Assembly: GCA_038999435.1 (NCBI GenBank)
Contig: JAVZYR010000006.1
Span: 1 to 25,383 of the forward strand
DNA from: Candidatus Aenigmatarchaeota archaeon
Lineage (GTDB): Archaea > Aenigmatarchaeota > Aenigmatarchaeia > QMZP01
Direction of reading: 5' to 3'
Length of the DNA: 25,383 nucleotides
The position numbers were made by a program, and so were the translations under genes. Shown here piece after piece: positions 17,028 to 24,950 of this stretch. The notes under the pieces were generated by a model. That model searched no databases. It had not been told where the DNA came from and saw only the letters and a list, made by a program, of their open reading frames with translations. The first letter of the stretch is position 1. Every line of letters begins with the position of its first letter.

Positions 17028-17056
17028 AGGAAAATATAATAATAAATATAAGATAT

Positions 17057-17155
17057 CCCGGGGTAGCTCAATGGCAGAGCATGCGGCTGTAGTCTGCTGA
17101 AAAGAAATGATGACCTGAGACCGCAGGGTTGGGAGTTCAACTCTCCCCCCCGGGA
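17057..17155 (+). tRNA. tRNA-Tyr(GTA) with 27-nt anticodon-loop intron (17093-17119 if at 37/38)
   Basis: Acceptor CCCGGGG/CCCCGGG, A73, C1:G72; D arm GCTC/GAGC; anticodon stem TGCGG/CCGCA with spliced loop CT-GTA-GA; T arm GGGAG-TTCAACT-CTCCC; CCA not encoded. Confidence 0.93.
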
Positions 17156-17156
17156 T

Positions 17157-19621: not shown

Positions 19622-20497
19622 ATGCTAAAATTTTATCAAAAGGTTGCAACAACAATATTCGATCCATTGTCAAAAAGGCTTGAACCCTCATTTGAGACGC
19701 TCAAACCACATCTAAAAGGTGCTGGGATGACGATAAGCCTTCGTGCCTGGATATCTTCTTGTCTTCTAACCACCCTTCTTACTTATACATTGACATTCAT
19801 TTTTATTGAAATTGCCAACATATATCTTCTCCTCGAGCCCTTCACATTTCTTTATATCCTTGTTTTTGTTCCGATTCTATCTGCTGCATTCTCTTTTGTG
19901 CTGCTATACATTTATCCAATAGAGCTGGCAAAATCTAAACAAAAATCGATTGATACAAACCTTCCTTTTGCGCTTGCACACATGTCGGCAATTGCTTCCT
20001 CAGGTATTCCTCCTGAATTTATGTTTGAAATGTTGACAGAGTTTAAAGAATATGGTGAGATAGCAAAACAATCAAAGATGATTGTAAACAATATGAAAGT
20101 TTTTGGTATGTCATCTGTTGCTGCAATGAAGGATGTTGCTGAAAAGAGCCCTTCAAAGCTTTTTAGACATGTTATACTTGGCATTGCATCAACAATAGAA
20201 AAAGGTGGTAACCTTGTCGAATATTTAAAAGTGATGTCTGACAAAGCACTTTTTGAATATAGAATAAGAAGGGAGGCATATCTTAAAACACTCTCAACCT
20301 ATGCAGACCTTTATACAGGCCTTCTTGTTGCAGCACCACTTATCATTTTAGCAACACTTGCTGTGATGGCAATTGTTGGTGGGGAGATACTTGGTATGAC
20401 AATTGGTGATGTTATAAATCTCATCACATGGACAGGTCTACCATTCTTAAATATAATGTTCTTGATATTTGTTCATATCACATATCCTGGTGTTTAG
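19622..20497 (+). CDS. Type IV pilus membrane platform protein (T2SS-F / TadB-C family), second paralog
   Basis: IDTNLPFALAHMSAIASSGIPP, EYGEIA, SPSKLF, GGNLVEYL, ADLYTGLLVAAP. Confidence 0.9.
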   Translation: MLKFYQKVATTIFDPLSKRLEPSFETLKPHLKGAGMTISLRAWISSCLLTTLLTYTLTFIFIEIANIYLLLEPFTFLYILVFVPILSAAFSFVLLYIYPIELAKSKQKSIDTNLPFALAHMSAIASSGIPPEFMFEMLTEFKEYGEIAKQSKMIVNNMKVFGMSSVAAMKDVAEKSPSKLFRHVILGIASTIEKGGNLVEYLKVMSDKALFEYRIRREAYLKTLSTYADLYTGLLVAAPLIILATLAVMAIVGGEILGMTIGDVINLITWTGLPFLNIMFLIFVHITYPGV

Positions 20498-22116
20498 CGA
20501 GGCAAAATACGTGGTTTTATATCCTTTTTCACCCAATCTAAAACCGTATCCTTATCTCTATAATAAAGATTTACAATCGAGCAAAATTGATCATATTGGC
20601 TTATCTTTTTCCTTGCTGCCCATTCAAGCACCTTCTTCCTGTTTTCAATTTCATCGATAATTTTTTGGAATGGTATACCTGTCTCGAATGAAAGCCTTCT
20701 AAGAATGTGGGATTGGGCAATATTTTCTCTAAAATCATCTGTTACAGGTATCCATGTGAATGTTTTGACAACACGAGCCCTTCCTGTTGTGATGTCTATA
20801 GATTCTATCTCATTTACAGATTTCACCCTTCTTGCTGATTTACCTTTCTCGACAGCATGCGTCATTACAATTACAACATCTAATGCCTCGATTAATGATG
20901 GGCTTAACTCGATTGGTGGTGTTTCGAGTCTTTTTATCATATCTTCAACAGAACCAGAATGTATTGTTCCCATGCTTGGATTTCCTGATGCCATACCTTG
21001 GAAGAGCACGTATGCCTCCTTTCCTCTTACTTCACCAACAATCGTATAATCAGGTTTCATTCTGAATGATTCTTTTAATAGGTCAAAAAGTTCAATCTCA
21101 CCGTATTTTTTACCTTCTGGTCCTGGTATTCCAAAACCTACACGCGTTGCTGCAGGAATCCAATTTTTGTGTGGTATATTTATCTCTCTCGTCTCCTCTA
21201 TCGAGACTATCTTTCTTTCCTCTGGCACAAACATTGTGAGAGAATTTAAAAATGTTGTCTTTCCTGTTGCAACAGCACCGCATACCATAATTGATGCAGA
21301 ATGCTCAATAAGAAACCAAAGATATGCAAATAGAAGGCTGTCTGCAGTTTTAAATTCCATCAAATCTATTGGAGAAAATGGTATTTTTCTAAACTTTCTT
21401 ATTGAAAATGTGGGCCCTTTTGTTGTGACATCTTTTGCAAGCGTTGCCTGGACCCTGCTGCCATCAGGTAATGTACCATCGAGGAGTGGCTCGGCGTATG
21501 TAACATACCTACCACAACGCTCTGCAAGCTTGACAACAAAATTATTTAGCTGTTCAAAGTCATTATAGACTATATTCGTCTCAAGCGAACCGAACTTTCT
21601 ATGCACAATATAGATTGGTACTTCGGTTCCTGTACAACCTATATCTTCTATATACGGGTCATGCATCAAAACTTCTATTTCATTTAAACCATAGAAGTTT
21701 CTCCATATATAATACATAAATTTGAGCCATACCTTTGCACTCAATTTTATCTTGAGTTCTACCAATACCTCTTTAAATTTTCTTTCTATATAATCAATCA
21801 GTTTTTCTTTGTCAATAACATCCATTGATGTGTCTATCTTTTCTGATAGTGCTTTTGATAATTGTATAAAGAGTTTTTTTTCAGATTCTGTCAGCTCGGG
21901 CTCAATAACATGATATTTTAACTTTTTATCTTTTTCGTCCCATAATATGCGAACACTTGCCCACGGCTCGAGTAGCGGATAGGTTATATCAACCTTTTTC
22001 TCATCTTTTATTTCAGGTATGATTATAAAATGCCTTGGCTCCCTTATTCTAAACCTTGGATATACCTTTTCTGGTTTTATGAGCTTCCTTCTCAAAAGAC
22101 CTCTTAGCTGTATCAT
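20494..22116 (-). CDS. Type IV pilus / archaellum-type assembly ATPase (FlaI/TadA family)
   Basis: DPYIEDIGC, LPDGSRVQAT, FSIRKFR, Walker A GAVATGKTT, SIEETREI, RMKPDYTIVGEVRG, TIHS. Confidence 0.95.
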   Translation of the reverse strand: MIQLRGLLRRKLIKPEKVYPRFRIREPRHFIIIPEIKDEKKVDITYPLLEPWASVRILWDEKDKKLKYHVIEPELTESEKKLFIQLSKALSEKIDTSMDVIDKEKLIDYIERKFKEVLVELKIKLSAKVWLKFMYYIWRNFYGLNEIEVLMHDPYIEDIGCTGTEVPIYIVHRKFGSLETNIVYNDFEQLNNFVVKLAERCGRYVTYAEPLLDGTLPDGSRVQATLAKDVTTKGPTFSIRKFRKIPFSPIDLMEFKTADSLLFAYLWFLIEHSASIMVCGAVATGKTTFLNSLTMFVPEERKIVSIEETREINIPHKNWIPAATRVGFGIPGPEGKKYGEIELFDLLKESFRMKPDYTIVGEVRGKEAYVLFQGMASGNPSMGTIHSGSVEDMIKRLETPPIELSPSLIEALDVVIVMTHAVEKGKSARRVKSVNEIESIDITTGRARVVKTFTWIPVTDDFRENIAQSHILRRLSFETGIPFQKIIDEIENRKKVLEWAARKKISQYDQFCSIVNLYYRDKDTVLDWVKKDIKPRILPR

Positions 22117-22799
22117 TTCTTTATGAATGCTTCTTCTTCAGGTAAAATCCTTATACCATTTTTATCTATATGATAGGGGTGCATTTTTTGTGAATGCGGT
22201 GAGCCTCTCATCTTCCATACTTGAATTGCCCTCAAAAACTGTGATTCAACCCTTTCATAGTAAAAAACGATCACAGAATCGGCAACGAACTCCTCGACAC
22301 CATACCTTGAAAGACCAGGACTACCAGGCACAATCTCAGAAACAATAAGCGCAGTGCAGCCAAGACGGCGAAGCAATAATGATATATCAAATATCATCCT
22401 TCTCAGTTCTGCTCTATCCTTGACATACAGGCCTAATGCTGAGATTGAATCTATCGCAACTCTTGTTGCACCAATCTCCTTTATCGTTGATTCGAGTATG
22501 TCTATCACATCCTCTATCCGATAAGGATCATAACGCATGATAGCTATCTTTCTTTTTTTCTCAAGTGCATTGAAATCCCATCCAAAAACAGAGGCATTCT
22601 GTCTTATGTATTCTGCTGGTTCTTCGAATGAAAGATAAACACCTGGTTCATTGCCCTTTGCACCAAAATTCAAATATTGCATACAAAATATGGTTTTTCC
22701 AGTCCCTGAAGTACCTGTAATGAGCAAAAGCTGGTTCTTTGGTATACCTCCCCCCACCAACTCATCAAAACCTGGTATACCTGACTTTATTCTTTGCAT
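22113..22799 (-). CDS. Single-domain KaiC/RAD55-like ATPase
   Basis: RIKSGIPGFDELVGGG, GTSGTGKT, SFEE, IDSIS, YGVEEFVADSVI, KMRGSPHS; 4-bp overlap with the pilus ATPase gene. Confidence 0.93.
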   Translation of the reverse strand: MQRIKSGIPGFDELVGGGIPKNQLLLITGTSGTGKTIFCMQYLNFGAKGNEPGVYLSFEEPAEYIRQNASVFGWDFNALEKKRKIAIMRYDPYRIEDVIDILESTIKEIGATRVAIDSISALGLYVKDRAELRRMIFDISLLLRRLGCTALIVSEIVPGSPGLSRYGVEEFVADSVIVFYYERVESQFLRAIQVWKMRGSPHSQKMHPYHIDKNGIRILPEEEAFIKK

Positions 22800-22826: not shown

Positions 22827-24029
22827 ATGGATATGGACAAAGAAGAACTAAAGCTACTGTTACAGGAACTCGAAAAGATTAGAGGCAGGCATACCGAACT
22901 TGTTTCTGTATATGTACCTGCAGGTTATAATATCCTTAAAGTTGCTGAACAGATAAGAAGCGAGCAATCTACTGCACAAAACATAAAATCAAAAACTGTT
23001 AGAAAGAATGTACTTGCTGCACTTGAAAAAATATCAGGTCATCTAAGATATTATAAAGAGACACCACCCAATGGCCTCGTAATATTTTGTGGAAATATCT
23101 CTGAAAGAGAAGGTGTGGCAGACATCAGGCTATGGGCAATCGAGCCATTCGAACCGATAGGAGTAAGGCTTTATCGTTGTGATCAGATATTCATTCTTGA
23201 TCCGCTAAAGGACCTTGTGAGAGAAACAGAGATCTATGGTCTGATTGTACTTGATAAATCAGAGGCTGACATCGGGTTATTAAAAGGAAAGGTTGTACAG
23301 AAAATCAAACATCTGGATTCGATCGTTCCTGGAAAGACAAAGGCAGGTGGATGGTCTCAACAAAGATATGCAAGGGTCAGAGAAGCGCTGCTAAATGACT
23401 TTCTCAAAAAGGTTGGAGAGATTGCAAGTGCGCAGTTTAGAGGTATGCGTGATCTAAAAGGGCTCATTATTGGTGGACCAGGACCAATAAAGGAACAGTT
23501 CTTTGATGGTGATTACCTTGCCTATGATATCAAACAAAAGGTGCTTGGTGTTGTCAACACATCATATACAGGTGAGTATGGGCTTAATGAACTTGTTGAA
23601 AGGTCAGAGGAGATACTCGCTGAGGCAGCAGTGATGAAAGAAAAGAGGATTCTTGAGAGGTTTTTTGATGAGCTTGCAAAAGGTGGGGAAAAGATTGTAT
23701 ATGGGCTAAAAGAAACTGTGTCAGCACTTAAGATGGGCAATATTGAACTGCTTCTCATTTCAGAAGGCTTTGATTTGATAGAAGTGGATGCAAAATGCAC
23801 ATGTGGTTGGGCAGGAAAGATTATTGTAAAGAAAGGTGAAGTGATAAAATGTCCAAAATGCAGTGCTATAATAGAAAAATATGATATATTCGATGTGAAA
23901 GAGAATGTGATAAAGCTTGCAAAAGAAATGGGAAGCCAGATTGAATGGATATCTACACAAACCCCACGTGGTCAACAGTTTAAGGAGTTGGGAGGGATTG
24001 GCGGTATCCTGAGATATAAGTTAGGATAG
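22827..24029 (+). CDS. prf1: Peptide chain release factor aRF1 (GGW variant)
   Basis: GRHTELVSVYVP, NIKS, YRCDQIF, GGPGPIK, GGIGGILRY; the GGQ position reads GGW. Confidence 0.95.
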   Translation: MDMDKEELKLLLQELEKIRGRHTELVSVYVPAGYNILKVAEQIRSEQSTAQNIKSKTVRKNVLAALEKISGHLRYYKETPPNGLVIFCGNISEREGVADIRLWAIEPFEPIGVRLYRCDQIFILDPLKDLVRETEIYGLIVLDKSEADIGLLKGKVVQKIKHLDSIVPGKTKAGGWSQQRYARVREALLNDFLKKVGEIASAQFRGMRDLKGLIIGGPGPIKEQFFDGDYLAYDIKQKVLGVVNTSYTGEYGLNELVERSEEILAEAAVMKEKRILERFFDELAKGGEKIVYGLKETVSALKMGNIELLLISEGFDLIEVDAKCTCGWAGKIIVKKGEVIKCPKCSAIIEKYDIFDVKENVIKLAKEMGSQIEWISTQTPRGQQFKELGGIGGILRYKLG

Positions 24030-24950
24030 CTTTTTGATCTCCTCTTCCAAATCCTTTTTCAACTCGGCTGATCTGTCCTCTTTACTGAAATAATCTATTC
24101 TTGCTGCTAAGCTAAGCTTTGCAGCTAAAAGTCGTGCAACCTTCCCTCTATTTTCTGGTTTTGCATGTTGAACAAATGGATGGAGAAATATTATACCATA
24201 CTTTGGTACTTTTGCCTTCTCTTTTAGATGTCTGAACAATGCCTTCTCTGCACCAAGCAGTTGTATTGTGGATGCAGGCATCTTTGCCAGTTTTTCAAGG
24301 CTACCTGCATGTTCAAGTAGCTTTGCTGCAATGAATGCGCCTGCAATCCCATACAAATTTGGCATCGTCTCTTTGCATATCTTCTCAAGATATTTGAAAA
24401 GCGCCTTTCTTTGTTCAAATATCTGAGCTAACATACCTGCCCATGCCCTTGCCGTTTCCACATCTTGTGGACTAAATTCCATGCCTGCTGAAGTGCTTGC
24501 AAGGTTCTCAAAACCTTTTATTTTATCCCTGCTCCCTCCTTCTGCAACGAGCTGAACAAACCTTTCATTGTCTGTCACAACTTTTGTTAATTCTGGAAAG
24601 TGAAGGCCATACCATTCCCTGAATCTCTCAACAAATGAGTTTAGGTTTTTGTCAATTTGTTCTATCATCCCAACAACAGGCTTTGCGATATTTTCTTTCC
24701 TTCCTTGTCTTAGCTTTTGTTTTACAGACAAAATACCTGCCTCATTCAGCATGATGTTTATCTCTAAATCGCTCTTTGCGAGCCCTGCTTTGATAATAGC
24801 ATTTCTAAGACCTTTTCTAAGAAAAGTATTATCTTCAATTATATCTTTAAATCTCTTTTTTATTTTTTCATCCTTTGAATAGCCCAAAAACCTGCCCTGC
24901 TCATCAAAAACAAAAAAACCGAGAGGGCATTTTGCAAGGTACACTGCCAT
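24021..24950 (-). CDS. nop5: C/D box sRNP subunit Nop5 (Nop56/58), compact
   Basis: RFREWYGLHFPEL, MPNL, AGSLEKLAKMPASTIQLLGAEKALFRHL, PKYGIIF.HP, RGKVARLLAAKLSLAARIDYF. Confidence 0.95.
   Translation of the reverse strand: MAVYLAKCPLGFFVFDEQGRFLGYSKDEKIKKRFKDIIEDNTFLRKGLRNAIIKAGLAKSDLEINIMLNEAGILSVKQKLRQGRKENIAKPVVGMIEQIDKNLNSFVERFREWYGLHFPELTKVVTDNERFVQLVAEGGSRDKIKGFENLASTSAGMEFSPQDVETARAWAGMLAQIFEQRKALFKYLEKICKETMPNLYGIAGAFIAAKLLEHAGSLEKLAKMPASTIQLLGAEKALFRHLKEKAKVPKYGIIFLHPFVQHAKPENRGKVARLLAAKLSLAARIDYFSKEDRSAELKKDLEEEIKKLS

Follow-up and report, generated by a model that had tools for sequence, protein, structure and literature searches.

We detected that the gene for the archaeal class-I release factor aRF1, in a stretch of DNA from a Candidatus Aenigmatarchaeota archaeon, encodes tryptophan at the site of the catalytic glutamine of the GGQ motif, and that its catalytic loop reads GGW-S-QQ. 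The stretch, called the window below, is the whole DNA that was analysed (25,383 nucleotides); it is contig C6 of the source genome G000 (549 kb, 30 contigs, estimated 86% complete). The reading that we favour, at a probability of roughly 0.6, is that this protein is the sole working terminator of its organism, that the loop now has the form GGxSQ, in which a glutamine shifted by two residues, the main chain or both would act while the bulky residue packs, and that the glutamine methylase Mtq2 would have been lost.

An intact aRF1 with a changed catalytic loop

The codons GGT GGA TGG TCT CAA CAA AGA (23346-23366) are in the frame of the aRF1 open reading frame (ORF), and the protein scores 457.4 bits against the NCBIfam aRF-1 model TIGR03676 (cut-off 234.7). 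The original prediction had described a codon-reading aRF1, intact except for a non-canonical GGW-S-QQ loop, and it is borne out by the codons, the model score, the decoding motifs NIKS and YxCxxxF, and three Pfam domains. The eRF1_2 domain reached 134.9 bits in a whole-genome search, and 4af1_A matched the window protein with an E value of 1.7e-79. W176 aligns with the GGQ glutamine of 4af1_A (GGQSAQRF) and human eRF1 (GGQSALRF), and alignment with these two gave no loop insertion or deletion between P-G-K and the R-aromatic pair.

Canonical factors (4af1_A, human eRF1, Haloferax volcanii) have the same three domains, the same NIKS and YxCxxxF motifs and the same loop frame, P-G-K-x-x-x-G-G-x-S-x-x-R-aromatic, with identical spacing. 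The window protein differs from them by Trp for the GGQ Gln, Gln for Ala/Ser at position +2 and Tyr for Phe at +5. It has the domains, the profile score, the decoding motifs and both glycines of the aRF1/eRF1 family, and lacks the GGQ glutamine. G174, G175, S177, R180 and R183 are invariant in alignment A1, and the AlphaFold2 model of the free protein (mean pLDDT, the predicted local distance difference test score, 94.1; input of 67 aligned sequences) starts the long M-domain helix at W176. In a 285-row aRF1 set, made up of 120 factors without the glutamine (non-Gln factors) and 165 with it (GGQ factors), YxCxxxF is retained by all 120 non-Gln factors and NIKS or NVKS by 112 of them. At the level of the predicted protein, the product is confirmed as a full-length codon-reading aRF1 with a non-canonical catalytic loop. 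Its features in the window are as follows.

22827..24029, + strand: aRF1 gene, 400 codons plus stop; in-frame ORF, no other class-I release factor being found in the genome
22863..23216, + strand: N domain eRF1_1, stop-codon reading, residues 13-130 (Pfam PF03463, E 8.2e-16)
22980..22991, + strand: NIKS motif, residues 52-55 (from the translation)
23172..23192, + strand: YxCxxxF motif, here YRCDQIF, residues 116-122 (from the translation)
23235..23621, + strand: M domain eRF1_2, which carries the catalytic loop, residues 137-265 (Pfam PF03464, 131.9 bits, E 2.4e-38)
23346..23369, + strand: catalytic loop G174-G175-W176-S177-Q178-Q179-R180-Y181, canonically GGQ-S-A-x-R-F (codons and alignment)
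23352..23354, + strand: W176 codon TGG, at the site of the canonical catalytic, methylated Gln (codon read)
23358..23360, + strand: Q178 codon CAA, candidate register-shifted Gln of GGxSQ (from the +2 Gln bias in non-Gln factors)
23367..23369, + strand: Y181 codon TAT, canonically Phe, co-varying with Gln loss (from the +5 Tyr bias)
23631..24023, + strand: C domain eRF1_3, residues 269-399 (Pfam PF03465, E 1.4e-25)
23796-23861, + strand: four-Cys insert of the C domain, C324, C326, C342 and C345 (near-invariant or invariant Cys in alignment A1)

A probable single release factor for three stop codons

The eRF1-type matches in the source genome were aRF1, a Pelota-like frame on contig C16 and one 33-residue match at chance level. 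Whole-genome search found no second aRF1 in this 86% complete genome, and a bVLRF1-type domain was not found in it either. None of 41 genomes (the source genome and 40 relatives of the same order) gave a match to the bacterial release-factor domain PF00472, which was detected in 10 bacterial controls. An aRF1 match was obtained in 39 of the 40 relatives and in 199 of the 201 genomes of a phylum sample that spans 33 family codes within one class. The count per genome was one aRF1 gene, intact or split, in 40 of the 41 genomes of the order and in 199 of the 201, and a single gene was present in 91 of the 92 phylum genomes at least 90% complete. Second aRF1 matches in five genomes that were examined were fragments or contig-end halves; a candidate second gene in G167 was rejected as a 72-residue remnant with stop codons. 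These counts speak against the rescue-type paralog that the original prediction had offered as an option. Its statement that all three stop codons end genes in the window holds for the source genome as well, where 333 ORFs of at least 200 codons end in TAA (160), TGA (106) or TAG (67). The best reading of the gene content is that the window aRF1 is the working release factor for all three stop codons; stop-codon-dependent peptidyl-tRNA hydrolysis by it is what we infer from its status as sole candidate and from the use of the three codons.

A dead A-site binder, which reads stop codons without hydrolysis and leaves the release of the peptide to another enzyme, would be the opposite interpretation. 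Passages of PMC10901736 describe Pelota and Balon as lacking GGQ, and the incompleteness of the source genome leaves this interpretation some room. Against it stand the failure to find a second aRF1, a bacterial release factor (41 genomes) or bVLRF1 (source genome), the single aRF1 of nearly all phylum genomes, the genes ending in all three stop codons, and the conservation of NIKS, YxCxxxF, both glycines, S177 and R180 as in active factors. Hibernation factors of the Balon/Rv2629 type are, in the same source, eRF1-like A-site binders without the GGQ glutamine; unlike the window aRF1, Balon has no NIKS, binds independently of mRNA and does not release peptide (PMC10901736, in the passages concerned). 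The window protein has NIKS and scores 32.7 bits against the Rv2629-family model NF052289, whose cut-off is 320. Against the Pelota/Dom34 model TIGR00111 it reaches 96.1 bits (cut-off 177.65), over the M and C domains only. We regard a dead binder as very improbable.

Distribution of the substitution in the phylum

The substitution is shared by much of the phylum. Among 30 loci of the window's order (29 relatives and the window gene), 28 read GGW and two GGQ. Nine further aRF1 genes of the order comprise five GGW and three GGQ genes interrupted by inteins, and one partial GGW gene. The first 120 of 129 newly listed phylum genes gave GGQ 53 times, GGW 34, GGM 29, GGY 2, GGF 1 and GGA 1. Over 159 species genomes the residue is W in 68, Q in 58, M in 29, Y in 2, F in 1 and A in 1; the Gln is absent in 101 of these 159 Aenigmatarchaeota genomes, and GGQ is retained in 58. 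About 54 genomes stand outside this motif count, namely G009, G010 and about 52 phylum genomes with a split gene or unlisted coordinates; aRF1 was not found in G009 with this query, and G010 gave an N-terminal fragment only. About two thirds of the phylum species in the sample have, on the evidence of these sequences, another residue in place of the Gln, mostly a bulky and hydrophobic one, and the lineage-wide change that the original prediction had envisaged is found when relatives' aRF1s are compared.

Families with mostly GGW are f1-f6 (the window's order), f11, f16 and f20; family f13 is mostly GGM, f26 GGF and f29 GGM. GGQ is found in f7, f8, f9, f14, f15, f17-19, f21, f22, f24, f27, f28 and f30-33. 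Among the best 150 of 1.84 billion cluster representatives we detected additional factors with GGW, GGM or GGF, and one each with GGS and GGA. One of these representatives, P0183 (GGW-SQ), is identical to a gene of a Candidatus Iainarchaeum genome (L226) from a different DPANN phylum.

A sequencing or assembly error at the Trp codon, or a codon read otherwise, was weighed against the same data. The same-genus genome G001 carries an identical GGWSQQRY, and the 120 nearest homologs in the database, which come from many separate assemblies, read GGW 110 times and GGQ 9 times, with one interrupted at the site. A base-call error, which had been called unlikely beforehand, is excluded by the identity of G001 and by this recurrence of GGW across assemblies. 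The Trp of 68 species genomes, the codons ATG, TTY or TAY at the residue-176 site in other lineages, and a tRNA-Trp (CCA) in the source genome argue in the same direction, and artefact or recoding can practically be dismissed.

As an observation apart from this, the aRF1 match of G193 (G193:C3:76807-78000, L153; family f32, GGQ) has one in-frame TGA, which could be an error, a recoding site or the mark of a broken gene.

Recurrence, ancestry and inteins

The 285-row aRF1 tree (FastTree, loop columns left out) requires 13 changes between Gln and non-Gln. A 95-row tree (IQ-TREE, LG+G4, short search) requires 11, of which 9 are forced by well-supported branches. A single clade of all 42 non-Gln rows is rejected by the approximately unbiased (AU) test (delta lnL 563.6, p 5e-45). 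As far as these trees tell, the replacement is one that arose or moved several times; transfer and independent mutation cannot be told apart on aRF1 gene trees. GGQ is the state of the outgroups and of the basal family f8, which makes Gln the likely ancestral residue in the phylum.

Six GGQ genomes (G006, G012, G020, G021, G024 and G134) are nested in the GGW order by family code and tree, each with the full canonical loop GGQ-S-[A/S]-x-R-F, which may have been kept or regained. Inteins of two sizes, mini (about 145 aa) and large (about 500 aa), were detected in many lineages exactly between residue 176 and S177 (loci L038-L045; representatives P0121-P0253). In a 189-sequence set the intein site is found in GGQ (42), GGW (11), GGM (4), GGF (2) and GGS (1) genes, and the nested GGQ genes carry an intein type different from that of their GGW neighbours. 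Intein homing could co-convert the loop, which would account for nested GGQ genera with a canonical loop and a different intein.

Coupled changes in the loop

The loop of the non-Gln factors has the form GG-x-S-Q-x-R-Y, where x is bulky and mostly hydrophobic. In the 285-row set, the +2 residue of the 120 non-Gln factors is Gln in 106, Ala in 13 and Ser in 1; the 165 GGQ factors have Gln in 24, Ala in 104 and Ser in 35. The original prediction had pointed to a shifted Gln, and Gln at +2 does accompany the loss. In nine independent pairs on well-supported branches, as the mean of 200 random pairings, the +2 Gln goes the same way as the loss in 5.6 pairs, the opposite way in 0 and is equal in 3.4 (median sign-test p 0.031). 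When Asn and position +3 are included, 117 of the 120 non-Gln factors have an amide (Gln/Asn at +2 or +3), vs 56 of the 165 GGQ factors. At +5, 89 of 101 non-Gln genomes have Tyr in place of Phe, against 8 of 58 GGQ genomes. No column elsewhere in the protein switches its majority residue between the Gln and non-Gln groups.

Probable loss of the Mtq2 methylase

The methylation of the canonical Gln was approached through a search for archaeal Mtq2 (TIGR00537, cut-off 87 bits) in the same genomes as the motif survey. Among the 58 GGQ genomes, 48 have a match of at least 87 bits, 4 a match of 56-87 bits and 6 none; among the 101 non-Gln genomes the corresponding numbers are 2, 5 and 94. In this check of the GGQ methylase, which had been proposed with the original prediction, the enzyme is missing from the non-Gln group. 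In the source genome Mtq2 was not found, the best TIGR00537 score being 29.5 bits against the cut-off of 87.

A FastTree tree of 24 Mtq2-like matches has two clades, split with 91% Shimodaira-Hasegawa-like (SH-like) support. The clade with NPPY-LP holds matches from GGQ genomes and from one genome of unread motif. The paralog clade, without NPPY-LP, holds all seven matches of the non-Gln genomes together with second matches of three GGQ genomes, and the seven were rejected as true Mtq2 since all of them fall in it. These paralog methyltransferases (loci L198-L203, L206, L207, L209, L214-L216 and L037) occur in GGQ and non-Gln genomes; some have NPPF for NPPY and some are about 385 aa long. Within the phylum, Mtq2 tracks the Gln in an average of 2.7 out of 3 independent contrasts, with none in the reverse direction, which is too few for significance.

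The partner Trm112 (PF03966) was not found in the source genome. It passes the cut-off in 25 of 41 relatives regardless of loop type and was rejected as a loop-type marker.

In Haloferax volcanii, the GGQ Gln of aRF1 is methylated by Mtq2 and cells that lose Mtq2 grow at half the rate; orthologs of the enzyme are stated to occur in all archaea (both from passages of PMC6144793). The source genome departs from this canonical system in that no Mtq2 was found in it. The target of human HEMK2 is given as G-Q-X3-R in a passage of PMC10804810, and this context is absent from the loop of the window aRF1. Judged from the genes and the loop context only, the N5-methylation by Mtq2(-Trm112) that marks canonical factors would be missing from the window protein.

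Proposed mechanism and its main competitor

The exact role of the GGQ glutamine is still debated, with water coordination, nucleophile selection and packing as the proposals. We suggest that catalysis in the window factor runs through the main-chain NH of residue 176, through the Gln178 side chain, or through both. The two glycines would still admit the loop into the peptidyl-transferase centre (PTC), and the main-chain NH of 176 and the Gln178 side chain would position the water for hydrolysis. Packing against the rRNA pocket, which N5-methyl-glutamine provides in ordinary factors, may come from the large side chain of residue 176. With the G-Q target gone, Mtq2 would become useless and then be lost. 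TGG and ATG are each two changes from a Gln codon, and a plausible path leads from GGQ-SA through GGQ-SQ to GG-x-SQ, with the second Gln covering for the first through the intermediates. GGQ-SQ loops exist today in families f9, f17 and f21.

A competing explanation is that the main chain alone is enough: the NH of 176 and the ribosome would suffice with any bulky residue at 176, Gln178 would do no chemistry, and Gln at +2 and Tyr at +5 would be structural adjustments of the first helix turn. Reportedly, work by Shaw and Green in 2007 and by Seit-Nebi et al. in 2001 found that many Gln substitutions keep partial release in vitro. Variation of residue 176 among W, M, F and Y, rarely A or S, is what a packing role predicts, and 14 of the 120 non-Gln factors lack the +2 Gln, three of them without an amide at +2 or +3. 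A packing role is also given to the Gln side chain in passages of PMC5799190, in which the methyl group makes van der Waals contacts to 2506, 2451 and 2452. The repeated, one-directional coupling of the +2 Gln is hard to explain if the position is irrelevant, and so is the excess of amides at +2/+3 in non-Gln factors given above. We consider catalysis by the main chain alone less likely than the shifted-Gln reading, and the strongest of its competitors.

Several observations weigh against the shifted-Gln reading that we prefer. The +2 Gln is absent in the 14 non-Gln factors just mentioned, 11 of which have Asn at +3. The remaining three, G025 (GGW-SAS), G143 (GGM-SAR) and P0220 (GGS-SAG), have no Gln or Asn at +2/+3, and therefore the shifted Gln cannot be strictly required. 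The +2 Gln also occurs in the 24 canonical factors and is hence not specific to the variant. In the free-protein AlphaFold2 model, residues 176 and 178 face different directions. Six of the 58 GGQ genomes, themselves incomplete, have no Mtq2 match. The phylum itself yields no more than 3-4 independent contrasts, in which Mtq2, +2 Gln and +5 Tyr change in the same direction and cannot reach significance. The trees are aRF1 gene trees, mostly made with FastTree, rather than species trees, and the AU test was applied to a group that had been delimited by the trait once the tree was known.

Relationship to VLRF1-type hydrolases

The original prediction had likened the loop to that of VLRF1-type proteins. 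This likeness is supported, in that GGxSQ is the loop motif of aVLRF-1 and acVLRF-1 in passages of Burroughs and Aravind 2019 (PMC6514570), and the window protein has GGWSQ at residues 174-178. According to the same passages, these proteins have a domain of the same RNase-H-like hydrolase superfamily and are short, codon-independent, predicted rescue factors with the longer loop of the VLRF-1 family (PMC6514570); the window aRF1 differs from them in its full decoding domain and canonical loop length. It does not belong to the VLRF1 clade by HMM: NF041024 gives 44.7 bits (cut-off 125), and a weak PF18859 match of 47.4 bits lies under the stronger eRF1_2 match of 131.9 bits. The eukaryotic VLRF1 proteins Vms1/ANKZF1 have the same fold and work without an exact GGQ, with GxuQ, where u is a tiny residue (PMC6514570, in part). 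Unlike the window aRF1, they act on the split 60S, do not read codons and have other accessory domains. The best reading is that the loop of the window aRF1 converged on the GGxSQ form of the VLRF1-type hydrolases.

Ribosomal RNA of the peptidyl-transferase centre

All 22 of the 23S genes of the window's order that cover the central loop of the PTC carry the same substitutions, at sites that the Rfam archaeal large-subunit (LSU) model shows as conserved. The PTC was located by BLAST against one locus and with the Rfam alignment (23S loci L049 (G024), L060, L061, L050-L059, L062, L066-L068, L071-L073, L076 and L077). In the E. coli numbering, the substitutions are C2452U, A2453G, A2499U, U2500C, A2503C and U2504C, with A2497U in 21 of the 22 genes; A2451, G2505 and U2506 are unchanged in the same numbering. 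Two of the substitutions look compensatory in the aligned sequences.

One strand of the 23S variant was found in 65 of the 201 phylum genomes (7 control hits), which include both GGQ and non-Gln families, and the canonical strand was exact in only 5 genomes. The rRNA variant was rejected as a correlate of the loop change because it occurs in both kinds of families. The LSU rRNA is not assembled in the source genome. Fuzzy patterns built from bacterial 23S motifs gave chance matches only and were discarded.

In the order, many of the 23S genes reach 4-6 kb and split into several BLAST pieces in domain V (L050-L077), with breaks that recur near 28, 54-59, 112 and 161-176 of a 240-nt reference stretch, as if small introns or insertions surrounded the PTC. 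The G038 bin (1.9 Mb) has three LSU rRNA matches, with the canonical strand in one and the variant in another (L048 vs L073); these mixed 23S strands suggest that the bin holds two organisms.

Neighbouring genes and tRNAs

By their motifs, the genes adjoining aRF1 look unrelated to termination. Upstream and on the opposite strand (20494-22799, -) are a predicted FlaI/VirB11-type secretion ATPase and a KaiC/RadA-like ATPase, and downstream (24021-24950, -) is a predicted Nop56/58-like gene. A tRNA-Tyr is located in the window at 17056-17156. ARAGORN detected only 10 tRNA genes in the source genome. Introns are predicted in five of them, and none has a suppressor anticodon; the majority of the organism's tRNA genes are presumably either unassembled or of a form that ARAGORN misses.

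Significance

The GGQ glutamine and its N5-methylation are described as universal to class-I release factors, across all domains of life, in passages of PMC6144793, PMC5799190 and PMC6514570. No published description of a non-Gln aRF1 variant was found in a search that left subscription journals and supplements outside, and "GGW" does not occur in PMC6514570; the substitution in a bona fide aRF1 appears undescribed. It touches a residue that is treated as invariant across life, and it does so over much of a phylum.

It is possible, though we hold this broader proposal tentatively, that this radiation rebuilt translation termination: the Gln would have become dispensable, its role would have shifted by two residues, a Trp, Met, Phe or Tyr plug would have taken its place, Mtq2 would have been discarded, and ribosomes with PTC substitutions, at pocket-lining nucleotides that other archaea conserve, were possibly permissive for the change.

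For annotation, a missing GGQ is no ground for calling an aRF1 inactive. The loop links a canonical factor to the GGxSQ loop of the VLRF1-type rescue hydrolases, and the co-changed residues, Gln at +2 and Tyr at +5, define a small testable set of loop swaps. Taken together, the phylum offers a natural experiment in which more than 100 species rely on a single Gln-less release factor without a recognisable Mtq2.

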